From: a virus
Length of the DNA stretch: 64,000 nt
Virus record (IMG/VR): IMGVR_UViG_3300009093_000036
Location: 131,356 to 195,355 of that record
Reading direction: 5' to 3' (one strand)
The translations under genes were made by a program, and so were the position numbers. The notes beneath the pieces are model-generated. The model worked only from the letters and a program-made list of their open reading frames with translations. It was not told the origin of the DNA and made no database searches. Shown piece by piece: positions 34,866-63,669 of the stretch. Position 1 is the first letter of the stretch. The number at the start of each line of letters is the position of its first letter.

Positions 34866-34945
34866 CTTCGTGCTCCTGTTGATGCAGGGGCCCAGGTCAG
34901 TGCCTAGGATAGCTCAGGATCCTGCAAGTAGGGAAGGAAACACAC

Positions 34946-35401
34946 ATGAACCATGCCAGGCTCCTCGATCTCGAAGTTGACGTCGTCACTCTGCGGCGTC
35001 GTCTTGATGCTCTGGAGGCCCGTCTCACCGGCTCTGTGCAGGACCTCAACGGGCCGCAGCCGTTGTTCGACTTGTACTCCCACCTGCTGCTGGACGGCCT
35101 AGAACCAAGCCCCGATGCTGTCGCTCTGCTGCGCACCTGTGTGATGTTGATGACGCCTCGTGCGTTGCTCGACCTCGCACGACTGACCGGCGACATGTTC
35201 GCGTGGAGGCCGTTCCTCTCCGCGCTCGACGTCATGCACACCCGTGGCTACGACGTCACAGAAGCGTCAGAGTGGCTCGTGAGCTCTGCGCAGGACCTCC
35301 TGCGAGCCCAAGGCCTCGGGATGCTGCGGCCCGAGGATGTCCTTCGTTCACCCATGGGACCGATCGCTACGATGAAGCGGATCGCCCTATCAGGAAGGTG
35401 A
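34946..35401 (+). CDS. hypothetical protein
   Basis: 151-aa ORF, AAGGA SD. Confidence 0.6.
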   Translation: MNHARLLDLEVDVVTLRRRLDALEARLTGSVQDLNGPQPLFDLYSHLLLDGLEPSPDAVALLRTCVMLMTPRALLDLARLTGDMFAWRPFLSALDVMHTRGYDVTEASEWLVSSAQDLLRAQGLGMLRPEDVLRSPMGPIATMKRIALSGR

Positions 35402-35402
35402 A
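35387..35402 (+). promoter_or_regulatory. CTATNAG-class putative promoter (CTATCAGGAAGGTGAA)
   Basis: 28 nt before the gyrB ATG. Confidence 0.6.
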
Positions 35403-35414
35403 GGGATCACTTCT

Positions 35415-39734: not shown

Positions 39735-40059
39735 GTCGCGATCTTCATCTTCCCCGAAGCCAACCCTGACAGCCATCTCTGGAACCATCCTGAAGGCGCT
39801 CGACGCCCTCGTCGTTCAATCTGCCACCACTACCGAAGGCGTGTGGCACCGCGTGTCGCGTTCACACTCTCCTGAGCTCAAGGATGCGCTCAGGAACTAC
39901 GTGAAGGCAAACAACAAGTACTACCACACGCGCTTCGAGGTCCACTTCCCGAAGCCCTTCGTGCTCCGGATCAGTGAGAGACCGGAGCCCCCTCGATCTG
40001 CTCCAGGAACCGCTGGACGAGCAGCCGAAGGTCCGGCGCGATCACGCCCTGCACGATGA
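39733..40059 (+). CDS. possible small antisense-oriented gene
   Basis: Codons 39790-39970 are strongly coding-like (AAG/AAC/TAC/TTC) and the same-register minus frame is closed. Confidence 0.35.
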   Translation: MSRSSSSPKPTLTAISGTILKALDALVVQSATTTEGVWHRVSRSHSPELKDALRNYVKANNKYYHTRFEVHFPKPFVLRISERPEPPRSAPGTAGRAAEGPARSRPAR

Positions 40060-40363
40060 TGAAGAACGAGTTGAACTCGGTCTCGAACCCGGCGTGCACG
40101 TTGCTGACCTCGAACGACTGCGGGATGGCGTAGTCGAGACGCTTGTCCATCGCGAAGGAGTCGTCCCAGCGCTCGGAGACGTTGTCGCCCTCGATGTGCG
40201 GGAAGATGTGGATGACCAGCGCGTTGTCGCGCTCCCGAACACCCCACTCGATGGTGTAGCGGGGGCGGGCGATCGCCTGCATCTCGGGGAGGTCGGGGCG
40301 GATGCGCTCCTCCTCGCTGAGGTTCGTGATGTTCTGGAGCTCGATGCGGTGCGGGGTGGTCAT
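39971..40363 (-). CDS. hypothetical protein
   Basis: 130-aa ORF coupled to the upstream gene. Confidence 0.6.
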   Translation of the reverse strand: MTTPHRIELQNITNLSEEERIRPDLPEMQAIARPRYTIEWGVRERDNALVIHIFPHIEGDNVSERWDDSFAMDKRLDYAIPQSFEVSNVHAGFETEFNSFFIIVQGVIAPDLRLLVQRFLEQIEGAPVSH

Positions 40364-41259
40364 GATGCGTTTCCTTTTTCTGTGTTCTGCGCCTCCAGCA
40401 TGTTGTAGAGGGGCAGCTCCTCGACGCTCGTCAAGCGCTTGGGATCGTACTTGGTGTCCATCTTCCGAAGCTCATCGAGGAGCTCGGCGCTACCACCGCG
40501 ACGCATGTCGACCTGCTCCTGTGCAGCGATGAGGGCGTTCACGAGCGCTTGCATCGCGGTCGCCTTCTGCATGCCGGGGTAGCGGGTGGCGGTCAGCTTG
40601 ATGAACTCCATGAACGTGGTGTCCCGGGCGTACCGGAACATGATCGACTCCTTGGGGATGCCGCCGGCGCCACGTGACGCGACGAACACGCTCATCGCCG
40701 CACCGACCTGGCTGCGTGGAGCGAGGAACACGGTCTGGTAGTCGTGAGACGCCGGGATGCTCTCCAGCAGCGCCGGCCACTTCGTCATCGGGACAGCCTC
40801 GATGTTCCAGAAGAAGTGCGCGTAGTAGCGGACCGTCGAGATGTTCATCACCTCGGGGTCGAGGCCATGGCCGATCGCGAGGCGCTTGGCGATGTCTCGG
40901 TAGTTGAGGGGACCGAGCAACATGATCTCCAGCTCGCGGCGTACCGAAGGCTGGTCGAGGATGTCGATCGCGAACATTGCGTGGGGCTCGCGGGCCCACA
41001 GGTCGTAGATGCGATGCGAGTGAAGGAACAGCGCAGTCGGCTTGTGCTTCAGGTTGGACGGGTCGTAGCCCGCCGGGAACTGAAGCTGGCGTTGCGCGAG
41101 CTGAAGCGTCTCCATGAAGGCGCTGAGCACCTTCTCCTCCTTCGACACCGGCATGTTCTGTCGCATGAGCTGGGCGATCAGCTCATTGACCTTGTACCGG
41201 CGCTGCGAGAGGAGGAAGACGATGTAGTTGCGGGCGGGGTGTTCGATGTTGATGTTCAT
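40360..41259 (-). CDS. hypothetical protein with HTH-like segment (terminase small subunit candidate)
   Basis: YRDIAKRL...ISTVRYY HTH-like segment; two genes upstream of terL; the TerS call is positional only. Confidence 0.45.
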   Translation of the reverse strand: MNINIEHPARNYIVFLLSQRRYKVNELIAQLMRQNMPVSKEEKVLSAFMETLQLAQRQLQFPAGYDPSNLKHKPTALFLHSHRIYDLWAREPHAMFAIDILDQPSVRRELEIMLLGPLNYRDIAKRLAIGHGLDPEVMNISTVRYYAHFFWNIEAVPMTKWPALLESIPASHDYQTVFLAPRSQVGAAMSVFVASRGAGGIPKESIMFRYARDTTFMEFIKLTATRYPGMQKATAMQALVNALIAAQEQVDMRRGGSAELLDELRKMDTKYDPKRLTSVEELPLYNMLEAQNTEKGNAS

Positions 41260-41262
41260 GTT

Positions 41263-43332
41263 TCACGATGCGGCGGCAGCCGACGGAGTCCCGTCGGTCT
41301 CTGCGGTGCGCATCGCGAGGCCCTTGAGGCCCTGGATGACCTCGTCGAGAGCACGAGCCGCACGAGCCGCCGCCGTCTCCGGAACCTCGGTCATGCCGAG
41401 GCGAGAGAACAGCGTGAGCTCGCAGACGGTGTTGAGCGCTCGATCGAGGTACGGCAGCTTGCCGACGTACACCCGCAGGTTCTCGGGGTTCAGGAAGTTC
41501 AGCGAGAGGACGCTGTCGACGGTCTGGATGTCGGGCAGCACCGAAGCCTCCTTGATGAGGTCCTTCCGGAGAGCGCGGACCTGGGCGACCTTCTCGGACG
41601 CCGTCTTCTCGATGTCGCGCATGAACGTCTCGACGGGGCGGACGTCGTGGACACCGATCACGTGCTCGGTGCGCATCGTGTGCGACGCGTGCTTGATGAT
41701 CTCGTGCGCCTTCAGCGGAGCCATGCCTGCCGCACAGAGCACGAAGACCGCATCGTCGATCGACGCGACCTTCGGGGCCGTCGCCTCCAAGCCGGGCAGC
41801 TTGTGGAAGGTGAGGTCGATGATGTCCCCGCCGTGACGCAGAGCGATGAACGGCTGCGCGAAGGCGGACGTCTTGACGGCTTCGAGGTCGTCGACGAGCG
41901 GGACGGCCGTCTCCTTGTTCAGCGCGAGGAAGCGCGCCGAAGCAGGCAGCGAGCACTCCTCGTCGCCCGGCATCATGTGCTGGAGGCCGGGCACGAGGCG
42001 GACGACGTGCGGCTGGCCGGTGAGGGTGGTGACGTGCACGAGGTCTCCGCCGTCCATCGAGGCTTCACGTCCCTCGATCTTGAACGGCACGGTCGCCTCG
42101 ATGCCGCTCGGGGTCACGACGTAGAAGAGACCCGAACCCGCCGGCTTGTCCTCGGGGAGCCCCATCGTGGCGTCGGAGATCTTCGCTCCGACGATCGAGC
42201 CCTGGACCGCAGCCGTCGCGCCGTTCGTGAACACGGCCATGGGGACACGAGTCCCATCGAAGTCGACGAGCGAGGGGAGAACCCAGCCCATCATCTCCTG
42301 GCCGTCGATGTTGCGGACACGATAGACGCCGGGCTTCTCGATGACCTCCCAGCGATCGTTCGTCGTGTCGAGCGGAGCCGTGTCCTTCGCGGGCTCGGAG
42401 ATCGTGACGGTCCCCTCCGTGTCGACCTTCTTCGTGATGTCGGGGCCGGCGAGCTTGAGCATCTGCCCGCGATCGATGTCGTCGCGGTTGATGCCGAAGA
42501 TCGAGCGCGACGCCGTCTTCATCCAGTACGTCCCACGGATCTCGTCCCAGCCGAACTGAGCGACTTCGACCGGAGCGTAGCTGGCCGCCTTGTCCATGAG
42601 GAGGTCGGCATCCCCTTCCGTGAGGAGGCGGCCGTCGAAGCTGGCCAAGTGCGACATGACCGCGAGGAAGGCCGGGTTCTGCTGAAGCTGCGGCTCCAGC
42701 CCCATCGACGAGATCTTCTCGCCGAGCGCATCCAGGTCGAGCTGCGACAGCGTCGGGGCGATGTGGTGGAGCAGCGACTCCTCGACGGCGAGGGAGGCCT
42801 GCTTCATGCCCGGGCCGTAGACGTAGCCGACGTTGTCTCCCGAGCCTGCGGAGAAGCCCGAGGTCGGGGAGTTCGAGGCGCGGCCCGGCGGGTAGAACAT
42901 CGAGTAGAGGCTCTGGTCTCCCGAGTCGTCCGTCATCATGTCGAACGTGTTCGGACGGAACAGCGCCTCACGAAGGCGGATGCCGTTGAGCGGGTACACC
43001 TTCTTGTCCTGCGTCATCACGATGTCGAGCGGGCAGAGCTCGGTGTTCTTGATGATGACGGGGATCAGCGCCTTCTTCGACGTCGGCTGCTCGTTGCCGG
43101 CCATCGAGAGTGCGGAGTCGGTCTGCCCCGAGATGACGATGACACCCAAGGCGAAGCCCTGTTCGTCATCCTGCCGCAGCATCACGACCTGCGGGTTGTA
43201 CTCGGAAGCCTCCGGCACCTGGCGGAAGAGCTCTTGGAGGATCTGCGGCCCCCACTTCGCCGCATCTTCGTCGAGCGGGACGGCAGCGACCTTGTCCTGG
43301 AAGATGGGGGCGACGTTCGTGAAGAGGTCCAT
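41263..43332 (-). CDS. large putative head-associated protein (KxA family)
   Basis: About 10 KxA/KxS motifs (KVAA, KQAS, KAAS, KTAS, KVAS, KHAS, KEAS); TAGGAT 7 nt before MDLF start. Confidence 0.7.
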   Translation of the reverse strand: MDLFTNVAPIFQDKVAAVPLDEDAAKWGPQILQELFRQVPEASEYNPQVVMLRQDDEQGFALGVIVISGQTDSALSMAGNEQPTSKKALIPVIIKNTELCPLDIVMTQDKKVYPLNGIRLREALFRPNTFDMMTDDSGDQSLYSMFYPPGRASNSPTSGFSAGSGDNVGYVYGPGMKQASLAVEESLLHHIAPTLSQLDLDALGEKISSMGLEPQLQQNPAFLAVMSHLASFDGRLLTEGDADLLMDKAASYAPVEVAQFGWDEIRGTYWMKTASRSIFGINRDDIDRGQMLKLAGPDITKKVDTEGTVTISEPAKDTAPLDTTNDRWEVIEKPGVYRVRNIDGQEMMGWVLPSLVDFDGTRVPMAVFTNGATAAVQGSIVGAKISDATMGLPEDKPAGSGLFYVVTPSGIEATVPFKIEGREASMDGGDLVHVTTLTGQPHVVRLVPGLQHMMPGDEECSLPASARFLALNKETAVPLVDDLEAVKTSAFAQPFIALRHGGDIIDLTFHKLPGLEATAPKVASIDDAVFVLCAAGMAPLKAHEIIKHASHTMRTEHVIGVHDVRPVETFMRDIEKTASEKVAQVRALRKDLIKEASVLPDIQTVDSVLSLNFLNPENLRVYVGKLPYLDRALNTVCELTLFSRLGMTEVPETAAARAARALDEVIQGLKGLAMRTAETDGTPSAAAAS

Positions 43333-43377
43333 GGTGTGCATCCTAACATCGAAAACGCGTTCAGGAGGAGAGCTGCT

Positions 43378-44478
43378 TCAGACGAGCTTGAACTTCTGAG
43401 CCAAGATCGAAGGAGGCGGAGGGCCCACACCCGCGGCGGTGCCAAGAGTGGTCAGGTACGTCATGAGCTGGTTGCCACAGACTCCAGGCTCGATCGCCGT
43501 AGCACCGCCAGCCAGGACGCTGCCATCGAGGATGACCTGGGCGCCCTTCACGCGGGCCTCGGAGCCACCCTCGACCTTCGCCTTGCCGTTGGCCTTCATG
43601 CTGAGGTCGCCATCGACCTGGACGTCGTAGTTGCCCTTCACGCGGAGGGAGTAGTTCGAGCCGACCATCTCGGTCTTCGTCCCGTCCATCTTCAAGAGCA
43701 TGCTGTAGGTGGCGTTCGTGACCTCGCCCGTCTCCGTGTTGATGCCCTGAGCGGCAACCATCACCTCCCAGACCTGTGCATCACCGCCGTCGGGTCCACG
43801 CAGCGGGAAGTGACGGACACGGAACGAAGCCTTCGCGTCCTGCGCGTACTCGTTCATGTGGAAGACGTACGAGGACGGGGCATTGCCTCCCGCATCGTTC
43901 TCTTGGCGCTCGGTCGTCCAGCGGATGTTCCCGCCGAACGTGTCCATCGTGTAGTTCTCGGCGAAGTCCCGCACGTAGTTGTTGATGGGGATGTAGATGC
44001 GTTGAGCGAGCTCGGTCGAGCCGAGCTGAAGGACACCACCACGCCGAAGCAAGATGAAGTTCTCGTCTCGCGTCGTCAGGAAGATGTCCCCGGGCTGCAT
44101 GTCGAGACGACGTCCGCGGAACGAGACGTCGGTCGTGCTGCCACCTGCGGACGTGCTGTGGGTGGGGGTGCCATCGTCGCTCTCGACGGACGACGGGATG
44201 GCGATGAAGCCGAGGATGAACGGCGGGGTTGTGTCGTTGCCTCGGAAGATCTGACAGCGAGCTCCTACCTCGGGGAGAAAGGAGATCCCCTCCCCGTTGT
44301 CGTTGTGGAAGTACGGCAGCGCGCACTGAAGGTCCTGGAAGGGCTTCTGCGTGTGACGGGTGACGACGTCCACGGTGAAGTTCGCCTTGTTGACGTTCGT
44401 CACCATCGCTTCCTCGATGACGGCGGGGAAGAACTCGGACGTCGAGGGTCCGCTTGCGCTGTAGTGACCGTCGCCCAT
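43378..44478 (-). CDS. baseplate central spike (gp5/GpV-like OB fold + beta-helix)
   Basis: N-terminal VTNVN...TVDV...GEGISFLPEVGARC OB pattern; C-terminal VKGNYDVQVDGDLSMKANG beta-repeat. Confidence 0.65.
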   Translation of the reverse strand: MGDGHYSASGPSTSEFFPAVIEEAMVTNVNKANFTVDVVTRHTQKPFQDLQCALPYFHNDNGEGISFLPEVGARCQIFRGNDTTPPFILGFIAIPSSVESDDGTPTHSTSAGGSTTDVSFRGRRLDMQPGDIFLTTRDENFILLRRGGVLQLGSTELAQRIYIPINNYVRDFAENYTMDTFGGNIRWTTERQENDAGGNAPSSYVFHMNEYAQDAKASFRVRHFPLRGPDGGDAQVWEVMVAAQGINTETGEVTNATYSMLLKMDGTKTEMVGSNYSLRVKGNYDVQVDGDLSMKANGKAKVEGGSEARVKGAQVILDGSVLAGGATAIEPGVCGNQLMTYLTTLGTAAGVGPPPPSILAQKFKLV

Positions 44479-47400
44479 CAGTACCTGGAGACCCCACGAC
44501 CGTTGCCGAACTCGGCCCCGTGCGCAAGCCCAGGGATCGGATGCAGGCCGTGGATGTCCGACTTCTCGTTGAGCGCCGCCGCCGTCATGATGTGCTCCTG
44601 GAGGCGGTTCGACTGAAGTCGCGCCATCCAGTCGTGCTGCTTCAGCGCCGTCGTGGTCTCCGTGGCCTTCAGCACCGGACGCACCTCGATCGGCTTTTGG
44701 TTCTTGAGCACGGTGCGGTTGATCTCCTCGACCACCGGGAACTGCATGTGGTCCCCGCGGAGGATGGTCGGGTGGTCACCGGGGTCCGAGACCTCGACGG
44801 TGCTCGTTGCGTTGCGCACCGTGAGCTCGACGTGACGACGAAGGACATCCTCCTTCTCGTAGATCTTGCCGATGCGATCGACCATGTGGTCCTGCGTCGC
44901 TTCGAGGCCACGGGTCTTGAGCAGCATGTTGAGGTTCGGGTCTCCCTCGGAGAGCTGCTCGCCACGCTGGAACTTGTAGCCGGCCTTCACGTGCGGAAGG
45001 AGGGGCTGACGAGAGTAGAGATCGACCTTGCTCTCTGCGAAGCGGACCTTGTGACCGCCCTGCGGCTGAGCCTCGACACGAGTGACGACGCCTGCACGCG
45101 GAGCGATGATGGCGTCGACCGGCGACCGCTTCGCGACACCGAACACGCGCTCGACGGTGCTGAACTCGTCGACGGCTCCACGCTGCGTCGGGACGATGCC
45201 CTGGTTGTGGGTCTGCTTCAGCATGAGCTGTGCAGCGCGCTCTCCGATCGCCTGCGCCGCCATGATGCCGACGTTGTCGCCCAAGTCGTAGTTGACGCCG
45301 GACGGGTGCTTGCCCATGCAGGTCGAGCACACCCCGTGCGGCATGCGGCACTTCAGGGGCGAGCGAACGAACAGGTTCGTGACGCCAGCCTTCGAGAAGG
45401 TCTGCTGGAGGCCGGGGGTGATGACGGTGCCCGCAGGGATCGTCTTGCCTCCGGCGGTGACGGGAGAGGCGAGATAGCGGTCGACGAGGTCGCGGTCGTT
45501 GACGCCCAGGCTGATGCCCGAGTGCGTCCCGCAATCCATCGCCGTGATGGGCGAGTCGATGTTGGACTGAATGAGCTCCTTCGTGAGGACGCCCGGGTCT
45601 CGAACTGCGTCGACCTTCTGGATCGTGCCCTTTCGTGCTCCAGCCGCCTGGAGGAAGTAGCCGCCAACGTCGACACCCTCGGAGAACGACCGCGTGATCG
45701 GAACCTTCGAGGCGTGGCCGAGGTGGTTCTCGACGAGCATCGGGGCGATCACGAGGCCCTGGAACTGCTCCTTCTTCGCCTTGATGCCCGAGGACCGCAT
45801 GTCCGAGATGTTCGTCGGATGCTTCTTGAAGTGCTCGTCGTAGGTCTCGTGCAGCTTCTTGGTGGCGTCCACCCAGATCTGCGTGCGCTCTGCGTCGGGC
45901 TTCCCTTCGGCACGGCTCTTCGCCGCCGCGATGATCTTCGCCCGCTCCACGCGCATCGGCTCCAGGTCCGAAAGACGAACGGTGTGTCCGCTCTCGAAAG
46001 CCATCTTGAAGCCGAGCTGGGTGAGGTTGCGGGTGAACGGCTCGAAGATCGCCGGGGCATGCTGTGCGGTCTGCCGAAGCATGTCCGTGACGAACTTCTT
46101 CGAGATGGGGGTATCGATGCCGGTGAGGACCTGCGCCTTGTACTGGTCGGGCACGATGTGAGAGATGCGGACACGGCCGAGCGTCGTGCGGTCCTTACCG
46201 ACCGTGATGACGTCGTCGAGGTTGATCTTGTTGTTGACGAACGCCGCCTCCGCTTCCTTCGCGGAAGCGAACGTCTGGTTGGTCTCCCGCTTCTTCAACG
46301 ACATGCGGTAGAGAGCGAGCATCGATTCGTTCGTCGGCGTGAACAGGACTTCACCCGTGCTCGCCGAGATGGAACGGTTCGACGGCAAGAGCTTGTAGGC
46401 CTCCTGCACCGCGGCATGCTGGATGGGGAGCATGAGCGCGACCGTGTCGCCGTCGATGTCTCCGCCGAGCGGGGGAAGAACGAGAGGACTCACCTTGATG
46501 GCTCGCGAGTCCGTGAGCTTCACCTTCTGACCGATGATGCCGTACTGATGGAGCACGGGGTCGCGCTTCATCAGGACCGGGCGCTCCTCGATCTCACGCC
46601 GCAGAGCAGCCTCGGCGACAGCGGAGCGCTTCGAGATCTCCTGCTGTGCCTGGATCGGGTTGTAGCCCATCTGCGTGAGGCGATGACCCACCATCGGTCG
46701 GAAGAGCTCGAACGCGATCTTCTTCGGTACGCCGATCTCGTCGGCCCCGAGCCCGGGGTCTGCGACGATCGTGGCTCGCGCCGTGTAGTCCTGCTTCTTG
46801 CCGATGACCTTGTCCTGGAAGAAGCCGTCCTTCGGCGAGTCGCCGGCGATCGTGTGCAGGATGCCGGGGAGGAAGCGGCCTCGCACCGGGTTGCCTTGGA
46901 AGTCGATGTCGAGAGCCTTCTTCCCCTTCGGGGTCGTACCGAAGAGGTTCTGGATCTCCTGGTAGAGATCTCCCTGTGCCTGAAGAAGACGGCGATCGGG
47001 GATGCCCTCCTTCTTCGAGGTCTCCAGGGACGAGTTCACCATGCCGAGCCGGCGATAGAGCTGATTCAGCGGATCGATGCGGTCCGTACCTTCCGCGCTC
47101 TCCTGGAAGGGGCGGTAGATCGGAGGCAGCACCGGCAGCAGCTTCATCGTGTACGCCTCGGAGGGCGTCTTGCCGTGCTCCTTCAGCGCACGCAGCGACT
47201 TGTACGCGAAGACCGCGTTGTTGAGCTCGCTGCTCTTCACCTTCGGGTCGTCGATCATCGACTTGTAGTGCTTCAGCCTCTGCTCGACATTGATCTTGGC
47301 GAGTCCGTCACGGATCGCCTCGCCTCCCGTCTTGCCGTTCAGCTTCATCTCACCCGAGACGATCTTCTGGATGTCCTGCTTCTGGATGCCCAGCAGCGAC

Positions 47401-50400
47401 GAGATCGAGTCCGCGAAGATCGGATTCGGCATCGGGGCCGCGAGCTCGATGTAGCCCCAGCGCTGCTTGTCCGGACCGAAGATGTGCGGATCGAAGATGC
47501 CTCCGCTCTTGGGCTTCATGTTCTTGGCGGCAACCGTCAGCGAAGGCTCGGTGACCTTGCCGCTCTTGCCACCCGCCCACTTCAGCGTCTCCTCGTCCGT
47601 CTGCGGGACGAGGCTGAGCATGCTGCCCTTTTTCTCCAGGTTCAGGCCCGTGGCCTGGAGAAGAGCACCGAACTTGTTGTAGACGTACGGAACCTGCGGA
47701 GGAGGGATCATCCGACCGTTCGCAAGAGCTGCCCACAGTGCCTCAGCCTGCGGCCGATCGGACTTGAGGGTCTGCATCTCGCCCAGGTTCTGACGGAGAC
47801 CAGCAGCGAGTGCGCCGTACACACCGAGAGAGCCCAGGCTCTGAGCGCCACTCTCACCACCGCCACGAGGGACGAGGTTCGTGTCGTACTGGATGTGCGG
47901 CATCCCGGTTGACTTGATGTAGGCGCCGCCGTGACGAACGTGCGTCTTCTTGTCGATCTGGTGTTCGAGCTGGAACACGTAGTGCGGGCCGACGGTCACC
48001 TCGCCGAGCTTGCGATCGGTCTTGGGGTCGACGAGGAGCTCAGTCTCCTTGAGGCCGTGGTGCTTCAGCTCGTCCTGGATCTTCTTCAGGTAGTCGGTCT
48101 GCCCGTCGAAGTTCTTGACGATGTAGGGCTGTCCCGTCTTCTCCGCGATCTTGCCCGCTGCCGTCTCCAGGATCTGCCCCGGGTTCATGCGGCCCGGCAC
48201 GGAGACCGGGTTGATCAGCATCTCGACGTGCTCGTGCTTGCCGTTCTTCGTGTAGTACGGCATCTCGTTGTCGGGCAGGATCTGCGTGACGATGCCCTTC
48301 GCGCTGTGGCGGGTCGAGACCTTCGAGCCAACGATCATCGGCTCCTTCGTCTTGACGTGAACGGTGATGTTCTTGCCCGAGCGAACGACACGCACGACCT
48401 CGCCGGTGTGCTCGTGGTCCCACGTCAGAGCCGCGTTCGTGTAGTCGAGGCGGCCCTTCTTGGTGAGCCGGTCGAGCATCTTCGCGTCGATCGTGTCGGG
48501 GTTCTTCTCTTCACGAAGAGCGAGAACGAGCGGGTCGCCGGGATGAACCGTGGCTCCCTCCTTCACAACACCATCATCACCGATGTGGTTGTACTGCGTG
48601 GGCTGGAAGGCCGTGCCCTTGTGCGCGACGAAGCGGTTCTTGTCGATGACGTGGTCATCCGTCACGTAGAACGACGGCTTCAGGAGATGCTCGGTCCCCA
48701 TCTTCTTGGCCGCGGACTCGGAGAGCGCGATGCCATCCTCGTGGTTCGCCCCGTTCGCCAAGTACGCGACGCGGACGTTCGTCCCCAGGGCGAGCGTCCC
48801 GTTCTTCGTGAAGGAGTGATCGGCAAGTACCTGACCTGTGTGAACTCGGTCGCCCACCTTCACGAGGGGCTTCGAGTTCAACATCGTCTTCTTTTCGTTG
48901 AGCGGGTAGTGGTCGTAGATGTGAACGGAGTGTTCATGACCCGCCGGATCTCGCACCACGATCTCGTCCGACAGCACCTTCGTCACGAAGCCCGCCACCG
49001 GGGCCTTGTGGGAGAGGAACGTCTCACCAATCCGCTTCTCGAACGAAGCCCCAGGTGCCGCCTGCACCTGCACGAGAGGAGCTTCGCGCCCCGTCAGTGA
49101 GAGCGCCTGCGCCATGTGACGCGCCGACATCGTCGTGCGTCCTGCTGCGTCGTTGCCCATGAACGGGACGAGGTTAGTCTCGGTGGAGAACACCTGCGTC
49201 GGAGAGATGAGTGCGTACTGCGCTTCCTTCAGCGGACGCTCTTCGATGTCGCCGTGCTGGTTCGAGACACGGACCTTCTCGTTGATGGCGCGCGGAACAC
49301 CGCCATGCCACGTGATCTGGTCGGGCAGCACCACGATCGACTTCGCTGCTTCCGCGGGTGTGAGCTCCTCGACCTTCCCCGTCTTGAGGTTGTAGAGCTT
49401 CGTGTACGGCTTGCGATCACGGACCACGATGCCGGACGTGAGGTGGGTGGTCGTGCCCGGGGAGCCCTCGGGGGTGAAGACGGGGTCGACGAAGCCGAGC
49501 TGAGAGGGATCCACGCTCGTGTTCGAGAGCGTGACCTGATGTTCGGACTTGATGCCTCCCGGGCCCATGATCGTCGTCTGGCTACGGTCGGCCAGCATCG
49601 ACACGGGGTTCGTCTGCTTCGGGGTCGAGGTCAGCCCCGTGATGCCGAAGACGTGGTTGATCGGCTTCTGGATGAGGTCCGGCATCACGATGTCGCGCAG
49701 CACCGACTGCGAGCCCGCAGTGAGCGCTTCCTGCGTCGACTTCTTGCCGAGGGACTTCAGGACACGACCGTGGATGTCGTTCTTCGAGGCATGCAGCCGC
49801 TCGATGAAGTGGTCCGCCGGCGTCCACAGCTCCTTGAACTCCAGGGAGTCGATGGGATCGGGCCGCGTACGCTCCGCGCTGACGTCGATGAGCTTGCCAC
49901 TCGCTCGAAGGAGCGCCTCTCCCGAGACCTGATCGAAGCCCTTCCCCAGCGTCGTCTTCGTGACGGCCGGATCCATCTTCGTCTCGCTGAAGTACTTCAC
50001 GATCGCAGCCGGCAGGTCGGTACCCGTCGGAACGTTCGCATCCTTCATCGCCGTGTAGAACGAGTTGAGGTCCTGCGAGTACCGGGACTTCTTCAAGTTG
50101 GCGTCGAAGTTCTTGTCGCCCCAGGCCTTCTTCATCTCGTCGTCGGTGATGCCCGTGGCCTTGAGGACCGAGTAGAGGGGGATCTTGCGGGCCCCCGTCT
50201 TCACGAAGAGGTAGCCGCTGCCAGGCTCCATCTGCACATCGAAGGGACGGCCCTTCGCGAGCTGGAACTGCGCCTCGAACTCTCCGGCCTTCTCGGTCGC
50301 TTTCACGTAGGCACCCGGACGGAGACGCCACTGGTTCGTGACCGACTTCTCCTGGCCACCGTGGATGAAGGTGTAGTGGCGCGTCAGCTTCGGGATGTCG

Positions 50401-50675
50401 GCGATCTTCATCCGACGACCGACCAAGGTCTTGCCGGCGCGATCGACCACCTCGACGTCAGCGACGACCGGCGCCGTGTACGACCGACCAGAGAGGCGGG
50501 CCTGCATCTGACCCTTGATGTCGTCGGTCCCGAGCGTGGAGTCCGACACCTCCAAGTTCTTCACCCGAACCTCGATCCCCGTCTTCGGGTCCGAGACCGG
50601 GAACGTGGCCTGGATCTCCGCGAGGAACCTCGACTTCAGGTCCTCGTACTGACGGTTCGGGTCGGTGTTCAGCAC
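44478..50675 (-). CDS. rpoBC: single-chain DNA-directed RNA polymerase, beta-beta' fusion
   Basis: beta motifs (QTNP..GPGG, TPEG, LVPFMGND, GSKVSTRHSAKG, NPVSVPGRMNPGQ, EMQTLKSD) then beta' motifs (GIFDPHIFGP, PVLPPIYRP, GKKQDYTAR, RDPVLH, GGDIDGD, RSPLKC..CSTC, AAQAIGE) in one frame. Confidence 0.95.
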   Translation of the reverse strand: MLNTDPNRQYEDLKSRFLAEIQATFPVSDPKTGIEVRVKNLEVSDSTLGTDDIKGQMQARLSGRSYTAPVVADVEVVDRAGKTLVGRRMKIADIPKLTRHYTFIHGGQEKSVTNQWRLRPGAYVKATEKAGEFEAQFQLAKGRPFDVQMEPGSGYLFVKTGARKIPLYSVLKATGITDDEMKKAWGDKNFDANLKKSRYSQDLNSFYTAMKDANVPTGTDLPAAIVKYFSETKMDPAVTKTTLGKGFDQVSGEALLRASGKLIDVSAERTRPDPIDSLEFKELWTPADHFIERLHASKNDIHGRVLKSLGKKSTQEALTAGSQSVLRDIVMPDLIQKPINHVFGITGLTSTPKQTNPVSMLADRSQTTIMGPGGIKSEHQVTLSNTSVDPSQLGFVDPVFTPEGSPGTTTHLTSGIVVRDRKPYTKLYNLKTGKVEELTPAEAAKSIVVLPDQITWHGGVPRAINEKVRVSNQHGDIEERPLKEAQYALISPTQVFSTETNLVPFMGNDAAGRTTMSARHMAQALSLTGREAPLVQVQAAPGASFEKRIGETFLSHKAPVAGFVTKVLSDEIVVRDPAGHEHSVHIYDHYPLNEKKTMLNSKPLVKVGDRVHTGQVLADHSFTKNGTLALGTNVRVAYLANGANHEDGIALSESAAKKMGTEHLLKPSFYVTDDHVIDKNRFVAHKGTAFQPTQYNHIGDDGVVKEGATVHPGDPLVLALREEKNPDTIDAKMLDRLTKKGRLDYTNAALTWDHEHTGEVVRVVRSGKNITVHVKTKEPMIVGSKVSTRHSAKGIVTQILPDNEMPYYTKNGKHEHVEMLINPVSVPGRMNPGQILETAAGKIAEKTGQPYIVKNFDGQTDYLKKIQDELKHHGLKETELLVDPKTDRKLGEVTVGPHYVFQLEHQIDKKTHVRHGGAYIKSTGMPHIQYDTNLVPRGGGESGAQSLGSLGVYGALAAGLRQNLGEMQTLKSDRPQAEALWAALANGRMIPPPQVPYVYNKFGALLQATGLNLEKKGSMLSLVPQTDEETLKWAGGKSGKVTEPSLTVAAKNMKPKSGGIFDPHIFGPDKQRWGYIELAAPMPNPIFADSISSLLGIQKQDIQKIVSGEMKLNGKTGGEAIRDGLAKINVEQRLKHYKSMIDDPKVKSSELNNAVFAYKSLRALKEHGKTPSEAYTMKLLPVLPPIYRPFQESAEGTDRIDPLNQLYRRLGMVNSSLETSKKEGIPDRRLLQAQGDLYQEIQNLFGTTPKGKKALDIDFQGNPVRGRFLPGILHTIAGDSPKDGFFQDKVIGKKQDYTARATIVADPGLGADEIGVPKKIAFELFRPMVGHRLTQMGYNPIQAQQEISKRSAVAEAALRREIEERPVLMKRDPVLHQYGIIGQKVKLTDSRAIKVSPLVLPPLGGDIDGDTVALMLPIQHAAVQEAYKLLPSNRSISASTGEVLFTPTNESMLALYRMSLKKRETNQTFASAKEAEAAFVNNKINLDDVITVGKDRTTLGRVRISHIVPDQYKAQVLTGIDTPISKKFVTDMLRQTAQHAPAIFEPFTRNLTQLGFKMAFESGHTVRLSDLEPMRVERAKIIAAAKSRAEGKPDAERTQIWVDATKKLHETYDEHFKKHPTNISDMRSSGIKAKKEQFQGLVIAPMLVENHLGHASKVPITRSFSEGVDVGGYFLQAAGARKGTIQKVDAVRDPGVLTKELIQSNIDSPITAMDCGTHSGISLGVNDRDLVDRYLASPVTAGGKTIPAGTVITPGLQQTFSKAGVTNLFVRSPLKCRMPHGVCSTCMGKHPSGVNYDLGDNVGIMAAQAIGERAAQLMLKQTHNQGIVPTQRGAVDEFSTVERVFGVAKRSPVDAIIAPRAGVVTRVEAQPQGGHKVRFAESKVDLYSRQPLLPHVKAGYKFQRGEQLSEGDPNLNMLLKTRGLEATQDHMVDRIGKIYEKEDVLRRHVELTVRNATSTVEVSDPGDHPTILRGDHMQFPVVEEINRTVLKNQKPIEVRPVLKATETTTALKQHDWMARLQSNRLQEHIMTAAALNEKSDIHGLHPIPGLAHGAEFGNGRGVSRY

Positions 50676-50681
50676 CGGGGA

Positions 50682-50687
50682 AGTCTA
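50682..50687 (-). promoter_or_regulatory. -10-like TAGACT 6 nt upstream of the RNAP GTG (leaderless class)
   Basis: TAGACT-TCCCCG-GTG with no SD. Confidence 0.55.
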
Positions 50688-50765
50688 CGCGCTGCCCTCG
50701 TAGTGGGTCAACGAACCCCGCGGAAATAGCCTCTCCGCAGACCTATCAACATGAAGGAGAGAGCC

Positions 50766-50888
50766 ATGCCCAACAAAGAAGACGAAGACGCCAGGGACAC
50801 CCTCACGCAGTACGAGGACTTCGTCCAAGAGGCGATCACCGAATCCATTCAGGAGAACGAGACGGATGTGGAGTCTGTTGCTGCTTAG
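50766..50888 (+). CDS. 40-aa highly acidic peptide
   Basis: Not in track; GAAGGAG SD; MPNKEDEDARDTLTQYEDFVQEAITESIQENETDVESVAA. Confidence 0.6.
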   Translation: MPNKEDEDARDTLTQYEDFVQEAITESIQENETDVESVAA

Positions 50889-50976
50889 CGTTGCGACCGG
50901 CTTCGTTCTCGGCCTTCACGCCTATCTGTCGATGCTCCTCGCGCGAGCACAGGCACAGGCGGCGGTGTCCGCATGA
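50866..50976 (+). CDS. 36-aa hydrophobic (single-TM) peptide
   Basis: Not in track; AGGAG upstream; MWSLLLLSVATGFVLGLHAYLSMLLARAQAQAAVSA; ATGA overlap with the next gene. Confidence 0.45.
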   Translation: MWSLLLLSVATGFVLGLHAYLSMLLARAQAQAAVSA

Positions 50977-51452
50977 GAAGAAAGCCCACCTACCATCCCA
51001 GAGTCATCGTGGAGGCACACGTGAGTGAGAACGACGGCGAGACGCCGCTTTGTGCGATCTGTAGCGAGCACGTCGGTGAACACACCGACGGGATGCTCAT
51101 GCTCCGAGGCCAGTTCTTCTACGTGAAGAACGAGGGCTACTCGATGTTCGTGCTCGACCCCGACACGAAGCTCCAGTTCATCGAGCTGCCGGACGCCCTC
51201 GGGCCCGGGCAGCCGCAGTTCGCGTTGGTGATCAACCCGACGACCCCCGAGCCGATTGTCCCGGCGCACGCCGAGTGCGTAACGGATGAGCTTTCGCTCG
51301 ATGACGACGATGACGACGATGTGCTCCCACCAGACGACCACCTCGATGAGCTGAGTGCCGAGATGCACGACGCCATGGAGCGCGACTTCGACCGCGAGCT
51401 CGAAGAAGCCGAAGTCGAGTGGAACAAAGACGACACCCTGACCTTGAGGTAG
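50973..51452 (+). CDS. Zn-finger protein with poly-acidic tail
   Basis: CAIC...HAEC; D-rich C-terminus. Confidence 0.65.
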   Translation: MRRKPTYHPRVIVEAHVSENDGETPLCAICSEHVGEHTDGMLMLRGQFFYVKNEGYSMFVLDPDTKLQFIELPDALGPGQPQFALVINPTTPEPIVPAHAECVTDELSLDDDDDDDVLPPDDHLDELSAEMHDAMERDFDRELEEAEVEWNKDDTLTLR

Positions 51453-51455
51453 ACG

Positions 51456-52604
51456 ATGCCGAAGTTCTCAGAAGCCAGACAGGAAGCTCTTCAAGAGCTG
51501 ACGGTGCAGTACAAGCACCGCTACCTCAGCATCCCGTGCCTGCTTGGAGGCGTCGGCCTCGGCAAGACCGAGATGGCTGCCGAGCTCGCCATCGAGATGG
51601 GTGAGAAGGTCATCGAGGACAGCCTCATCTTCGAGGCGATTCCCACAGGGGAAGCCTCCGACCCCACCGACACCGCCGGCATCCCGTGGGTCATCCCTGT
51701 GGAAGGGACCAACATCTCCAAGAAGGACTTCCGAGTCCTGTGGGCGCTGAACCGAGCCGCGTTCGATGCCTGCCACCGCCCGACGATGTTGCTCTTCGAC
51801 GACATCGACAAGGCCACGCCTATCGTCACGAACTCGCTGCTGCACCTCTTCGTGCACCGGCGGTTCAAGGACTTCGCCCTGCACGAGAAGTCGTTGATGA
51901 TGTGCGCGGGCAACCGCACCACCGATGACATTCATGCCAACGCGATGTCGGAGTCCCTCAAGACGCGTGTCACGGCCATCGAGGTGGAGGCCGACTTCGA
52001 CGACTTCTCGAAGTGGGCACTGAGCGTCGAGGAGGACAAGCCCTCTCGCATCCACCCTGTGCTTCTCGGGTTCTTGAACCACAAGCCCGAGCTCCTGCAC
52101 AAGCACGAGGAGAACGTCATCCGCTTCCCTACGCCTCGTGGCTACAGGGAGACCTCGCTGCACATGATGGAGTTCCCCGACCCGAAGACGTGGCTTCGCA
52201 CGCTGACGCGAAAGATCGGCCAGGGTGCCGCGAACGACTTCTGGGCCTGGTACACCGTCCTCTCGAAGGTGGACGTCGACTACATCCTCGAACACGGGAC
52301 GTTCAAGGAGCCCATCAAGAGCGACAACCCGAAGACTCCTCTGGAGGTCGTGCAGAAGATGGCGGAGTTCGCTGCCGTCTTCGCAGTCACGGACCGCCTC
52401 AACAAGAAGATGTCTCCGAAGTACTCGGGGCTCGAAACCTTCATCGCGTCCCTGGCTCCGGAGCTGCGCGTCGCGTTCCTCCTTCAGATGCGGGATGGGA
52501 CGAAGCGCGAGTTCAGGAACTTCTACCCGAAAGCGTCAGGCAAGATCATGGGCACCATCATCAAGGACGCCAGCTCTTCGCCGGCGAACGGAACTGGGCC
52601 GTGA
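51456..52604 (+). CDS. MoxR-like AAA+ ATPase
   Basis: GGVGLGKT Walker A, LLFDDIDKA Walker B, AGNR sensor, SLKTR. Confidence 0.85.
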   Translation: MPKFSEARQEALQELTVQYKHRYLSIPCLLGGVGLGKTEMAAELAIEMGEKVIEDSLIFEAIPTGEASDPTDTAGIPWVIPVEGTNISKKDFRVLWALNRAAFDACHRPTMLLFDDIDKATPIVTNSLLHLFVHRRFKDFALHEKSLMMCAGNRTTDDIHANAMSESLKTRVTAIEVEADFDDFSKWALSVEEDKPSRIHPVLLGFLNHKPELLHKHEENVIRFPTPRGYRETSLHMMEFPDPKTWLRTLTRKIGQGAANDFWAWYTVLSKVDVDYILEHGTFKEPIKSDNPKTPLEVVQKMAEFAAVFAVTDRLNKKMSPKYSGLETFIASLAPELRVAFLLQMRDGTKREFRNFYPKASGKIMGTIIKDASSSPANGTGP

Positions 52605-53842
52605 TCCTCAGCGACGCGGACCAGGTGTACAACAACCGGATGACGAAAGCGGCCACGTCGCTCGTCATCCGGTTTCCTTTTTTCGGCTACTTGTTGTTCG
52701 GCAGCTCCGTGCGAGTGCAGGCAGACGACTGCGCCACCATGGAGACCGACGGCATCGGCATCTTCTGCGGGAGGAAGTTCGCGGCCACCGAGGACTTCGA
52801 GATCTTGATGTTCGGGTTGCTGCACGAGCTCTTGCATGTCTACTTCAACCACCACGGCCGCAGAGAGAACCGCGACCCGAAGCTCTGGAACATCGCTGCC
52901 GACATCTTCGTCAACGGGCAGTGCGGTGAACTGCTCGGCTCCCTCGACGTCCGTGGTCAGCTCGTTCGTTGGCCGGTACCGAAGCGCTTCATCCAGTACG
53001 TCTTCTGGGCGGACGGGAAGACCGTCGAGGAAATCTACACCGTCCTGAAGAAGGAAGAAGAAGCCAAGGCCGGGTCGACCAAGCAGTACCTCCCCGAGGG
53101 CGGTGAGAACGACGAGGTCGGCAACGGGACCGATATGCGTGAGCCACCGTCAGCCCCCGCTGGCGAAGAGGAAGGCGTCGACAGCGGCCCGCAGCAGATG
53201 AACAAGGACTTCCAGGAAGCCTTTCGTCAGGATGTCGCTCACGCCAAGACGATGTCGGAGCACAGCCCACTGCACAAGGACCTCTCCCAGATCGTTCGAG
53301 AGAGGATGGACAAGGTTCTGCGGCCGACGCTTCCGTGGGGCTCCTTGGTGCGTGGAGGTCTCAGCACGGACTTGGGCTGGGACGAGGCGACGTATGCGCC
53401 ACCCAAGATGAAGTACTACCCGATCATCCTTCCGCAGACGCGGGTGGTGAAGGAGCGTGTTCTTCTTCTCGGCATCGATGTCAGCACGAGCGTCACGGAT
53501 GCCCTCATCCGTATCTTCATCACGAACGTGCAAGCTGCGGCGCATCGAGCCACGAAGGTGATCGTCGTCACCTTCGACGCCATTGTTCGAGAGCAGTACA
53601 CGACTACCCAGCCCCGCCACATCTTCGACCATGTCAAGTTCAAGAGCGGAGCTCACTCATACACGTCGGCCATCGAGCTGTTCGAGATCGCGGCGAAGGA
53701 GAAGCCGAGCGCGATCTGCATCCTGACGGATGGCCACATCAAGTTGCCGGACAAGCCGGTCAAGAAGACGACGTTCGTGATCCCCACAGGAGGCCTGAAG
53801 CCTCCATGGGGGACGACGTACGTCATGGAGTATCCCTGGTGA
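52601..53842 (+). CDS. DUF2201-type metallopeptidase-like + vWA protein
   Basis: GTG start overlapping the upstream stop; PFFGYL, TDG, HELLH, WNIAADIFVN, GIDVSTSV MIDAS-like, ILTDG. Confidence 0.85.
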   Translation: MILSDADQVYNNRMTKAATSLVIRFPFFGYLLFGSSVRVQADDCATMETDGIGIFCGRKFAATEDFEILMFGLLHELLHVYFNHHGRRENRDPKLWNIAADIFVNGQCGELLGSLDVRGQLVRWPVPKRFIQYVFWADGKTVEEIYTVLKKEEEAKAGSTKQYLPEGGENDEVGNGTDMREPPSAPAGEEEGVDSGPQQMNKDFQEAFRQDVAHAKTMSEHSPLHKDLSQIVRERMDKVLRPTLPWGSLVRGGLSTDLGWDEATYAPPKMKYYPIILPQTRVVKERVLLLGIDVSTSVTDALIRIFITNVQAAAHRATKVIVVTFDAIVREQYTTTQPRHIFDHVKFKSGAHSYTSAIELFEIAAKEKPSAICILTDGHIKLPDKPVKKTTFVIPTGGLKPPWGTTYVMEYPW

Positions 53843-55263
53843 TGACGATCTACGAGTCCCTCGCCCACGCCCTCATCAACGAGCACGGGCGAGGACTCTT
53901 CACTGGCTCGAACTTCAGCAGCCTCACCCATGGCTTCGCCCCGAAGGTGTGGAGGTGGCTGCTCATCGCCTACGGAGAAAAGCTCGAAGAGCTGCCGACC
54001 CAGATGGGGCTGCCTCCGATCCCGAAGCGACCGGCCCCCTACAACTTCCCGGCGTACACGATCGGCAAGGTCATGCACCTTGGAATCCCGCTGAAGGAGG
54101 CGATGCAGTTCAAGGCCATCCGCGGATACACGGCCAATCACACCCCCATCCAGCTCGCTACGGCGCTGCTGGAGCACGGGACAGCGATCGAGGCTCTGGA
54201 GGCCGAGGACATCCTTCAGTTCGAGTTCTTGCGGAAGTTCTACGAAGACCACACCCCGCACAAGTTCATCGACTCCATCACCCTCAACCCGTACGCACCG
54301 TCGCGGTACAACCTCAACCCGTATCCGATCGAGTTGTTGTTGGACCACGACCAGAAGCCCATCCCCCTCGACACGCTAGGGAGCGCGATGTGGTTCCCCA
54401 AGGAGTACATCAAGAAGCTCCTTCAGCAGACCGAGCCTCCGATGTGGTACTCCCACCTCTGCCGCCTCAACACCTTCTTCGGAGGGAAGTGGACCGACAT
54501 GGTGGAGTCTGCTTCGTACAAGATGTTGTACGGAGCGAACCCTCCGAAGGAGGTGACCAACGCGGCAAGGTACGTACGGAACCTGTCGTCGGCGCAAGCT
54601 CATGCTTATCTCGCCAGGCTCACCGGAGTGCGTGAAGGGCTTCGTGTTGTGCGTCACGATGCCTCAGCGGAGACGATGGCCTCCGGCCTCAAGGCGATCT
54701 CGGGGTCGGCGAAGAACGACGAGTACTACAGGCTCATTGGTCGAGCCCTGACGATCGAGGACTTCCGAAAGATGTCGCCGAAGGCAGCACTACGGACCCT
54801 CTACTCTGTGAACCATGAGACCGTGAGGGCGGTCATCGAGTCCCACAGCGAAGAGCTCGGGGCACTGTTCTTCACGCTGACGGGCAAGGAGGACCTGCCG
54901 ATGGTGATGAACTCGATGTCGCCTCACACCAGCCGAACGGACAAGTGGCACCCGGACACCACCGAAGGGAACGTGGCAGCCTTCGAGTCCTTCAACAAGA
55001 CCCCCAAGGAGTCCTGGGACGCGCAGATGAAGCCGTTGGTCGAGTCCTACATCCGAGCCCGAGACTGGAGAGACACCGCCATCGAGCTCGGGGAGCCCGC
55101 CGTCATTTTCCTCGCGCTGATGCTGTGGGCCTCCAAGCCCGAGGACCCTGTGCCGCGTCCAGCGATCGAGAGTGTGCTGCGGTCACACCACAGCATCAGC
55201 ATCATCGAAGAGCGCTGCAAGGAGATGCCCGAGTTCTACAAGAACACGGAGTCGTATCTGTGA
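53842..55263 (+). CDS. hypothetical 473-aa protein, third gene of the MoxR-vWA operon
   Basis: TGATG coupling; high GC3; no recognisable motif. Confidence 0.7.
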   Translation: MTIYESLAHALINEHGRGLFTGSNFSSLTHGFAPKVWRWLLIAYGEKLEELPTQMGLPPIPKRPAPYNFPAYTIGKVMHLGIPLKEAMQFKAIRGYTANHTPIQLATALLEHGTAIEALEAEDILQFEFLRKFYEDHTPHKFIDSITLNPYAPSRYNLNPYPIELLLDHDQKPIPLDTLGSAMWFPKEYIKKLLQQTEPPMWYSHLCRLNTFFGGKWTDMVESASYKMLYGANPPKEVTNAARYVRNLSSAQAHAYLARLTGVREGLRVVRHDASAETMASGLKAISGSAKNDEYYRLIGRALTIEDFRKMSPKAALRTLYSVNHETVRAVIESHSEELGALFFTLTGKEDLPMVMNSMSPHTSRTDKWHPDTTEGNVAAFESFNKTPKESWDAQMKPLVESYIRARDWRDTAIELGEPAVIFLALMLWASKPEDPVPRPAIESVLRSHHSISIIEERCKEMPEFYKNTESYL

Positions 55264-55292
55264 GAGGAGGGGCCGCAAGCCCCTCTTCTTTT
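55264..55292 (+). terminator. intrinsic terminator
   Basis: GAGGAGGGGC-5nt-GCCCCTCTTC-TTTT. Confidence 0.85.
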
Positions 55293-58199: not shown

Positions 58200-58239
58200 C
58201 GTGTGCCTCTTGTACCACGCCGTGGCCCATCCGTGAGGA

Positions 58240-59205: not shown

Positions 59206-59211
59206 CTACGA

Positions 59212-60294: not shown

Positions 60295-60315
60295 GGTGCT
60301 CTCTCCTCGACTCGC

Positions 60316-61620: not shown

Positions 61621-61627
61621 GGGGTCA

Positions 61628-63667: not shown

Positions 63668-63669
63668 AC

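Follow-up and report, generated by a model that had tools for sequence, protein, structure and literature searches.

A fused bacterial-type RNA polymerase, possibly carried in the virion, and two classes of promoters in a phage genome

The window analyzed here (64,000 nucleotides, with its own numbering) comprises the last 64 kb of one 195,355-bp phage record in IMG/VR, IMGVR_UViG_3300009093_000036 (positions 131,356 to 195,355), 62.5% G+C. On its minus strand, at 44478–50675, it encodes an RNA polymerase (RNAP) of 2065 amino acids in which the bacterial β and β′ subunits are fused into one chain, and this gene lies behind a host-type promoter and directly in front of the gene of a probable spike protein. 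The locus raises the question when such an enzyme is made and which genes it serves. A first-pass annotation of the window had proposed an inverted programme resembling that of phage N4, in which a packaged phage RNAP transcribes the early genes and host-type promoters drive the late genes. Having followed up this proposal computationally, we assign a probability of about one half to the reading that the RNAP travels in the particle and starts the infection.

According to this reading, RNAP and a phage-encoded sigma factor would be produced alongside the virion proteins and packaged into the particle. Both would be ejected with the DNA, and the holoenzyme would start transcription from one class of promoters (class A) requiring neither host RNAP nor new protein synthesis. 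The units behind a second class (class B), including the RNAP gene itself, would be read via the host primary sigma factor, on the host core or on the phage core. "N4-like" is meant as a mode of action and not as family membership, as far as the encoded domains can tell; no RNAP domain of the T7/N4 type was found, a search of the genome for the T7-type domain PF00940, run without a positive control, giving no match.

The fused polymerase and the phage sigma factor

CheckV estimates the 195,355-bp record to be 100% complete. In a relative of 96% identity (195,774 bp) prefix and suffix overlap by 127 bp and the assembly closes as a circle. IMG/VR labels this relative as having direct terminal repeats; we rejected the label, the repeat being really the 127-bp assembly overlap and not physical ends, and it gives no order of DNA entry. 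Because the assembly of the relative circularises, the plus-strand genes at the end of the window run on into position 1 of the genome.

Across the complete 195-kb genome the open reading frame (ORF) at 44478–50675 is the sole β/β′ gene, identified by Pfam domains, by profile matches to the Protein Data Bank (PDB) and by alignment. The Pfam domains follow in the order Rpb2_6, Rpb2_3 and Rpb1 domains 1, 2 and 5. Rpb2_6 (PF00562), the region of the catalytic double-psi barrel of β, covers residues 558–921 (E 8e-51), and the PDB profiles matched are those of bacterial β′ (E 5e-84) and β (E 3e-65). The β part extends approximately over residues 1–1014 and is followed by a linker of about 25 amino acids; the β′ part starts at about residue 1039 and joins at about residue 36 of β′. 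In an alignment with β and β′ of Salmonella, which were taken from a contaminant record within the phage collection, the lid, the full-length clamp helices, the rudder, the DxDGD motif, the bridge helix and the trigger loop are retained, and the second zinc site (Zn2) of the β′ part retains its four cysteines. The aspartates D1406, D1408 and D1410 of the motif GGDIDGD are invariant among 14 homologues. Judged by these comparisons, the enzyme keeps all catalytic elements. Missing from the same alignment are SI1 and SI2 of β, SI3 of β′, part of the clamp, and the N-terminal zinc-binding domain of β′ with its four cysteines (E. coli residues 70–88), at which there is a gap of 33 residues relative to the Salmonella β′. 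Neither α (PF01000) nor ω (PF01192) was found in the genome at E values up to 1 in searches with positive controls.

The rifampicin pocket, which aligns with that of the Salmonella β at about β residues 343–370 (49480–49590, minus strand), is altered. At the positions corresponding to E. coli Q513, D516, H526, R529 and S531, which we take from the established genetics of rpoB resistance to be the five main rifampicin contacts, the phage enzyme reads S, K, D, Q and T. Since all five contact residues are changed, the enzyme should be resistant to rifampicin, as predicted from the aligned positions.

More than 100 uncultured homologues of 2040–2150 amino acids are encoded on contigs of 150–200 kb. 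Several homologues (P0027, P0040, P0067, P0072, P0079, P0088, P0090 and P0101) are longer, with 2400–2980 amino acids, and have intein or homing-endonuclease domains (PF14528, PF05204, PF14890, PF03161) within the polymerase.

The presumed partner of the core enzyme is a sigma70-family factor of 262 amino acids encoded outside of the window (genome positions 34875–35663). The single sequence stays below the Pfam cut-offs. A profile built from 14 homologues matches RpoD, SigA and SigB in the PDB with regions 2–4 in order (E 3e-10, query residues 63–256), and the protein is homologous to the sigma factor gp10 of the cultured, distantly related Salmonella phage Arash (E 9e-12), which itself has the Pfam domains Sigma70_r3 and r2. 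When the family consensus is aligned to RpoD, the positions reading the −10 and −35 elements in E. coli (W433, W434, Q437 and T440; R584, E585 and R588), which on the basis of the established sigma70 literature we take to be the promoter-reading residues, are all substituted. These changes fit a non-canonical promoter target, so far as this can be deduced from an alignment. The sigma gene has a gp8-like gene as its neighbour, which is also the case in Arash; the sigma gene is preceded by a class A site and falls within class B units. It is the only sigma factor found in the 195-kb genome, and it is of the gp10 type.

Two classes of promoters

In front of the RNAP gene there is a −35 element TTGACC (50706–50711, minus strand), followed after a spacer of 18 nt by the −10 element TAGACT (50682–50687) and six nucleotides later by the GTG start codon at 50675. 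The leaderless TAGACT promoter reported for this gene in the first-pass annotation was confirmed, the arrangement TTGACC-N18-TAGACT-N6-GTG being kept in six of seven relatives with 53–80% RNAP identity. In these six the −35 box, the spacer length, the −10 element and the distance of 6 nt are all conserved; the letters of the spacer vary freely, the −10 element reads TAGACT, TAAGCT, TAAACT or TACAAT, and the start codon is GTG or ATG. The seventh relative (L031) shows only the −35 box, since the start called for it is upstream of the position expected. In a more distant clade of 37% identity the RNAP gene is preceded by TTGCAC-N18-TACCCT and a short leader. Within TAGACT the letters TAG form an in-frame stop codon, and residues 2–14 are conserved in the homologues; together these fix the start of the protein. 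With the start fixed and no fitting Shine–Dalgarno sequence the mRNA would be leaderless, provided that TTGACC/TAGACT is the promoter. In view of its conservation we regard the element as a real, selected promoter of the primary-sigma type.

The promoter of the portal operon has the same architecture as that of the RNAP operon (TTGACC at 61652–61657, TATTCT at 61628–61633, 7 nt, ATG at 61620, minus strand). The consensus of class B is TTGACC-N17/18-TAnnCT, 6–7 nt before the start codon. Units of head and tail proteins also have class B promoters or relaxed copies; these head the gene of a 1182-amino-acid homologue of the Arash structural protein gp8 and a unit with a homologue of the Arash structural protein gp13, and a class B-like −10 element TAGGAT (10712–10717, minus strand) is found 6 nt before the gene of a 722-amino-acid minor head protein. 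As a bare hexamer TAGACT is counted 3 times against 8.2 expected. The loose rule TTGACC-N16-19-TAnnnT returns 12 sequences genome-wide, compared to 15–37 in first-order Markov nulls and 62–84 in mononucleotide shuffles; six of the 12 sit 6–7 nt before an ATG or GTG opening a long ORF, the mean of the null being 0.4. Sigma70-like promoter sequences are hence about two-fold rarer than in the first-order Markov nulls, and half of those present are leaderless and look functional. Stray host-type promoters may have been selected against, or the rarity may come merely from codon and TA bias.

Upstream of the head operon (34866–34945; first gene 34059–34865, minus strand) we observed a further conserved block, GAGCTAT[C/T]CTAG, in comparison with a relative of 74% identity. 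It contains a −10-like TATCCT or TATTCT in the two genomes, has no good −35 element and is not leaderless; tentatively, it may represent a third flavour of promoter.

Class A promoters are of a different make. Their consensus of 18 nt, CTAT[C/A]AG-nAAGATGAAGG, is contiguous and has no −35 element. The core CTATNAG, for which the first-pass annotation had claimed a position before non-structural genes, is not enriched as such (raw count 7 vs. 5.7 expected). The claim holds in that genes of replication and DNA metabolism lie behind the extended motif; the sigma gene, which is also preceded by a site, is an exception to the split of the classes by function. All six plus-strand copies of CTATNAG in the window lie shortly upstream of plus-strand genes, and genome-wide CCTATCA stands before 10 genes where 0.27 are expected. 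A position weight matrix (PWM) built from 23 hand-picked sites finds 36 sites with a score of at least 10, compared to 2–6 in shuffled sequences, and 26 sites with a score of at least 20, counts which are partly circular because the seed sites score high by construction. We estimate the total at about 26–30 class A sites in the genome. The sites are oriented with the genes, lie 4–45 nt before their starts and often follow straight after a hairpin and a T-run. The reality of the motif rests on position, orientation, extended consensus and conservation; the raw counts look like chance.

Behind class A sites we find the genes for helicase, DnaB, primase, PolA, UvsX, a Cas4-like protein, DNA ligase, the large subunit of topoisomerase II and many small proteins of unknown function. 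No recognised virion gene lies directly behind any of the genome-wide PWM sites. The early timing of the replication genes is an assumption from their function, and the assignment of the two classes to functions is based on about 20 annotated genes together with cysteine content as a proxy.

The best-scoring site (61662–61679, plus strand) heads the replication module, whose operon extends from 61692 to 64000 and over the contig end to genome positions 1–14767 and encodes helicase, DnaB, primase, PolA, UvsX and the Cas4-like protein. Another site, at 35387, precedes the gene for the large topoisomerase II subunit (35387–37364 including the site, plus strand), and a class A site is also present before gyrB in the relatives L014 and L015. 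At 10730–10736 (plus strand) a CTATCAG precedes a gene of 177 amino acids. A degenerate core, CTATCAA (50743–50749, plus strand; PWM score 11.7), is divergent from the RNAP promoter and heads a plus-strand island of genes at 50751–55263; in five of eight relatives checked the full CTATCAG is found at its place and in two there are variants. The core CTATCAG is also found at homologous intergenic places in relatives of 74% and 56% identity. It does not recur in the 37%-identity clade, in Arash or in the Vibrio phage D69, and in the two last-named phages no extended motif was found. The exact class A 17-mer occurs in seven contigs of IMG/VR, which is about chance level and uninformative on a co-occurrence with the RNAP; one of the seven is the 96%-identical relative, and four others that were checked do not have the RNAP.

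In several places promoters of the two classes stand divergently back to back with their cores 0–30 bp apart (10712–10736, 50682–50749 and 61628–61668 in the window, and 40271–40306 in the genome). At 10717–10736 the −35 position of class B overlaps the reverse complement of CTATCAG. Such overlapping promoters could be mutually exclusive.

Evidence for packaging and the alternative programmes

The link between the RNAP and virion genes is seen first in the operon itself. The stop codon of the RNAP gene and the ATG of the following gene overlap by one nucleotide (TGATG, 44478). This gene (43378–44478, minus strand) encodes a protein of 366 amino acids which is a candidate for a gp5-like central spike. 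It matches the PHROG baseplate hub families with E values of 6e-5 and 4e-4 and, weakly, Gp5_C and Phage_base_V (E about 0.08); of its PDB profile matches, all of them weak (E 0.04–0.5), 15 of 15 are gp5-type central spikes, and its orthologues in relatives carry Gp5_trimer_C or Phage_base_V. An AlphaFold model computed from an alignment of four sequences was discarded as unusable (mean pLDDT 43). From these matches the identification as a gp5-like spike is probable. In all eight relatives checked the orthologue follows the RNAP gene directly or with one small ORF between. Of the asserted coupling of RNAP and spike, the overlap of stop and start is plain and the identity of the spike is probable but not certain. 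Together with the promoter type shared with the portal operon, this arrangement would fit a co-regulation of the RNAP gene with virion genes.

Amino acid composition points in the same direction. The RNAP has only four cysteines in 2065 residues (C1715, C1776, C1783 and C1786), exactly the ligands of Zn2, compared to 22 in β plus β′ of Salmonella. Among 13 aligned homologues ten have exactly four cysteines, two have five and one has none, and the sigma factor is free of cysteine in 14 of 14 homologues. In the pooled proteins the cysteine content is 1.05% for annotated intracellular enzymes and 0.37% for virion proteins (Mann–Whitney p 7e-4); genome-wide it is 1.28% for class A units and 0.51% for class B units (p 1e-5). 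By composition RNAP and sigma factor group with the particle proteins. Several large class B proteins are nearly free of cysteine, for example a protein of 1227 amino acids (genome 45941–49624) which has none.

Particle data are available for Arash. In the reported proteome of particles prepared by sucrose gradient and pelleting, gp206, which comprises β and the N-terminal part of β′, has the most spectra of any protein (3516), gp216, the second RNAP chain, has 1210 and the sigma factor gp10 has 467, about two spectra per residue for each of the three (PMC10585845). The authors propose a role in early transcription and also caution on carry-over (PMC10585845).

Several observations weigh against a packaged RNAP that starts the infection. 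The class B promoter in front of the RNAP gene is near-consensus, and the host RNAP should therefore fire there as soon as the DNA enters, in which case packaging would not be needed. The RNAP sequence aligns with β from residue 1 and stops at the end of β′, so that there is no obvious extension for targeting to the capsid or for ejection. The particle list of Arash comprises 116 of its 272 proteins, ribonucleotide reductase and a kinase among them, and cytoplasmic carry-over is possible (PMC10585845); in addition Arash, at 32% RNAP identity, is only a remote relative and lacks the class A motif. The split between the promoter classes is also imperfect. A class B promoter (TTGCTA at 6585–6590, TATGCT at 6562–6567, ATG at 6554, minus strand) heads a unit of a gene of 199 amino acids and a DnaQ-like exonuclease (5362–5958), no class A site stands immediately in front of the small topoisomerase subunit, and there is one in front of the sigma gene. 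We searched 90 proteins against protein families; most virion-side and class A proteins gave no match, and for most genes behind class A and class B sites no function could be assigned by these searches. Finally, the only particle proteome drawn on here is that of Arash.

These points bear most directly on a cascade resembling that of T7, in which nothing is packaged. The host RNAP with its primary sigma would fire at once on the strong class B promoters and make phage RNAP and sigma factor, and the holoenzyme would then read class A; the virion genes of the same operon would be made from the outset or be controlled after transcription. What such a cascade needs in front of the RNAP gene is a host-type promoter close to the consensus, and exactly this is found (TTGACC, 18 nt, TAGACT), strictly conserved; gene 1 of T7 is likewise preceded by host promoters. 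RNAP and sigma genes both lie within class B units, the DnaQ-like exonuclease is under class B as well, and the RNAP lacks a targeting extension. On the other hand, an early operon containing spike, terminase-adjacent and portal genes would be unusual, and the cascade leaves aside the translational coupling of the RNAP to the spike-like gene, the promoter type common with the portal operon, the virion-like cysteine depletion of RNAP and sigma, and the presence of both in the particle proteome of Arash. We consider this cascade less likely than packaging, and yet it keeps a sizeable minority share of the odds because of the promoter it requires. A less likely possibility is that one core serves throughout: the packaged β–β′ would use the phage sigma at class A and would later turn, at class B, to the primary sigma of the host or to some phage factor that was not recognised, the host core never being needed, as in phiKZ. 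The clamp helices of β′, the main docking site for sigma, are of full length, and the phage has only a gp10-type sigma, yet its class B promoters resemble those of a primary sigma; in Arash one core is accompanied by two sigma factors, of which gp10 alone appears among the entries of the particle list that were considered. Against the use of one core speak the lack of α and ω and the deletion of the zinc-binding domain of β′, and we regard it as unlikely. That class A is not the promoter of the phage RNAP at all, being instead read by the host core with the phage sigma or serving as a regulator-binding or RNA-processing site while the phage RNAP serves other genes, would agree with a contiguous motif of about 18 nt without a −35 box and with the lack of the motif in Arash, D69 and the clade of 37% identity, which all have the RNAP. 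If promoter and sigma co-evolve, however, distant clades are expected to have lost the motif; the sites are gene-oriented, 4–45 nt before starts, and often stand after a hairpin and T-run, where a new promoter is needed; and a phage having its own core and sigma most simply pairs them. This last explanation appears very improbable to us.

The N4-like programme proposed initially thus survives in part. In its favour are the two promoter classes, the promoter shared by RNAP and portal operons, the phage sigma factor, the Arash particles and the cysteine depletion; it is weakened by the exonuclease behind a class B promoter and by the fact that a T7-like cascade predicts the same promoter before the RNAP gene. 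A more elaborate version of the packaged programme would have the one-chain β–β′ and a retargeted sigma, without α and ω, carried in the capsid, nearly free of cysteine for the journey and threaded into the cell, the holoenzyme on class A blocking the adjacent leaderless class B promoter until later. In this full form we consider it rather unlikely, more so than the T7-like cascade and less so than the use of one core throughout.

Gene neighbourhood, related systems and implications

Downstream of the spike candidate the RNAP operon continues with three genes of 692, 299 and 130 amino acids (39971–43341, minus strand) which have no family match and whose order is kept in the relatives L014–L016. 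They are followed by the large terminase (TerL; 37944–39788, minus strand), identified by PHROG 675 (E 1e-48), Pfam GpA_ATPase and Arash gp1 (E 1e-42). The order RNAP, spike-like protein, genes of about 690, 300 and 135 amino acids and TerL is kept across 37–74% RNAP identity, L016 being an exception with two additional small ORFs. In the same range of relatives, too, the portal operon adjoins the RNAP operon. It consists of five tightly packed genes of 434, 360, 321, 317 and 652 amino acids (55291–61657 including the class B promoter, minus strand), the last of which (55291–57249) encodes the portal protein, matching Arash gp204 (E 1e-65) and an ORF of D69 (E 6e-65). The plus-strand island 50751–55263 between portal operon and RNAP contains small ORFs, a MoxR-type AAA+ ATPase, a DUF2201 metallopeptidase/VWA protein and an unknown protein of 470–640 amino acids; relatives with as little as 37% RNAP identity still have it.

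The minor head protein of 722 amino acids (8537–10705, minus strand) has DUF5661, an inorganic pyrophosphatase (InPase) domain and a PHROG minor head protein region. The InPase domain is of a type found in injected polyvalent proteins, and a pyrophosphatase delivered alongside an RNAP would pair neatly with it. Such a head protein in a class B unit counts in favour of packaging, and it is the one observation made here that bears on the abundant processed head cargo named in the first-pass annotation. The major capsid protein (MCP) gave no Pfam match.

The closest parallels are Arash (OQ632216; PMC10585845) and the Vibrio phages D69, D148 and D181, which have a bacterial-type RNAP in the virion module beside the portal, as is the case here; the RNAP gene comes immediately after that of the portal in Arash and D69. 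Common to these phages and the present one are portal, TerL, a gp10-type sigma and gp8-, gp13- and gp6-like structural proteins. Their RNAPs are 29–32% identical and are made of two chains (β plus the N-terminal part of β′, and the C-terminal part of β′), whereas the present enzyme is a single fused chain. A second sigma factor (gp196) is encoded by Arash, which has no class A motif, whereas here one sigma was found and the late-type promoters resemble the host primary-sigma type. A search before the portal–RNAP operon of Arash gave only weak candidates for a sigma70-like promoter, with overall counts not above shuffles.

In N4 the virion RNAP (vRNAP) transcribes the early genes, RNAPII the middle genes and the host sigma70 RNAP the late genes, among which is the vRNAP gene. 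The N4 vRNAP is a T7-like single-subunit enzyme of 3500 amino acids, its early promoters are DNA hairpins, and the middle RNAP is a separate enzyme. The proposal made here resembles N4 in that an injected RNAP acts first and late genes have host-type promoters; it differs in the T7-like enzyme, of which no domain was found in this genome. The crAss-like phage phi14:2 packages gp66, a single-chain RNAP with two double-psi barrels which transcribes the early genes, the host RNAP transcribing middle and late genes, and no common motif was seen upstream of the early transcripts (bioRxiv 10.1101/2020.03.07.982082). The programme of gp66 is the same as the one proposed here. To call a fused double-psi-barrel RNAP with such a function a distinct system, as was done initially, therefore overstates the novelty, since gp66 is already a packaged single-chain two-barrel RNAP for early genes. 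However, gp66 has diverged until its homology to cellular RNAP is barely detectable, whereas the enzyme described here matches bacterial β′ with an E value of 5e-84 and comes with a sigma factor and a sharp motif; we know of no sigma factor for gp66.

The RNAPs of phiKZ and AR9 are likewise of the two-barrel β/β′ type without α and ω; they travel in the head and are injected to carry out early transcription. These phages have two sets of RNAP of 4–5 chains each and no sigma70-family factor, and do not use the host RNAP; the reviews on transcription in jumbo phages describe no system such as the present one (PMC7598289, PMC13282480). The phiKZ and AR9 enzymes are far from bacterial RNAP, in contrast to the single fused chain with a real sigma found here. 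The mReC phages (Weinheimer and Aylward 2020, PMC7481178) are also uncultured tailed phages with β/β′ related to the cellular COG0085 and COG0086. They have a T4-type MCP (PF07068) and a Terminase_6 TerL, and fusion, sigma factor, promoters and packaging are not discussed (PMC7481178); the phage analyzed here differs in its gpA-type TerL (GpA_ATPase) and in an MCP without Pfam match.

To sum up, the programme itself, with a packaged RNAP for early and the host RNAP for late transcription, is already known from N4 and phi14:2. It is the machine that differs, consisting, to judge from the encoded genes, of a near-cellular, fully fused enzyme with a true factor of the sigma70 family, a private promoter that is sharply defined, and late promoters of the host type that are leaderless. 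The division into private class A and leaderless host-type class B promoters yields directly testable predictions, and the altered rifampicin pocket makes a test with the drug informative. If the packaged programme is correct, a widespread and almost unstudied lineage would send through its tail an RNAP close to the cellular type, accompanied by a genuine sigma factor. Such an enzyme would stand between cellular RNAP and those packaged two-barrel enzymes that have diverged strongly (crAss gp66 and phiKZ vRNAP), and would show that β–β′ can work without α or ω. Single-chain RNAP, one sigma factor and an 18-nt promoter would then make up a compact orthogonal bacterial transcription system.

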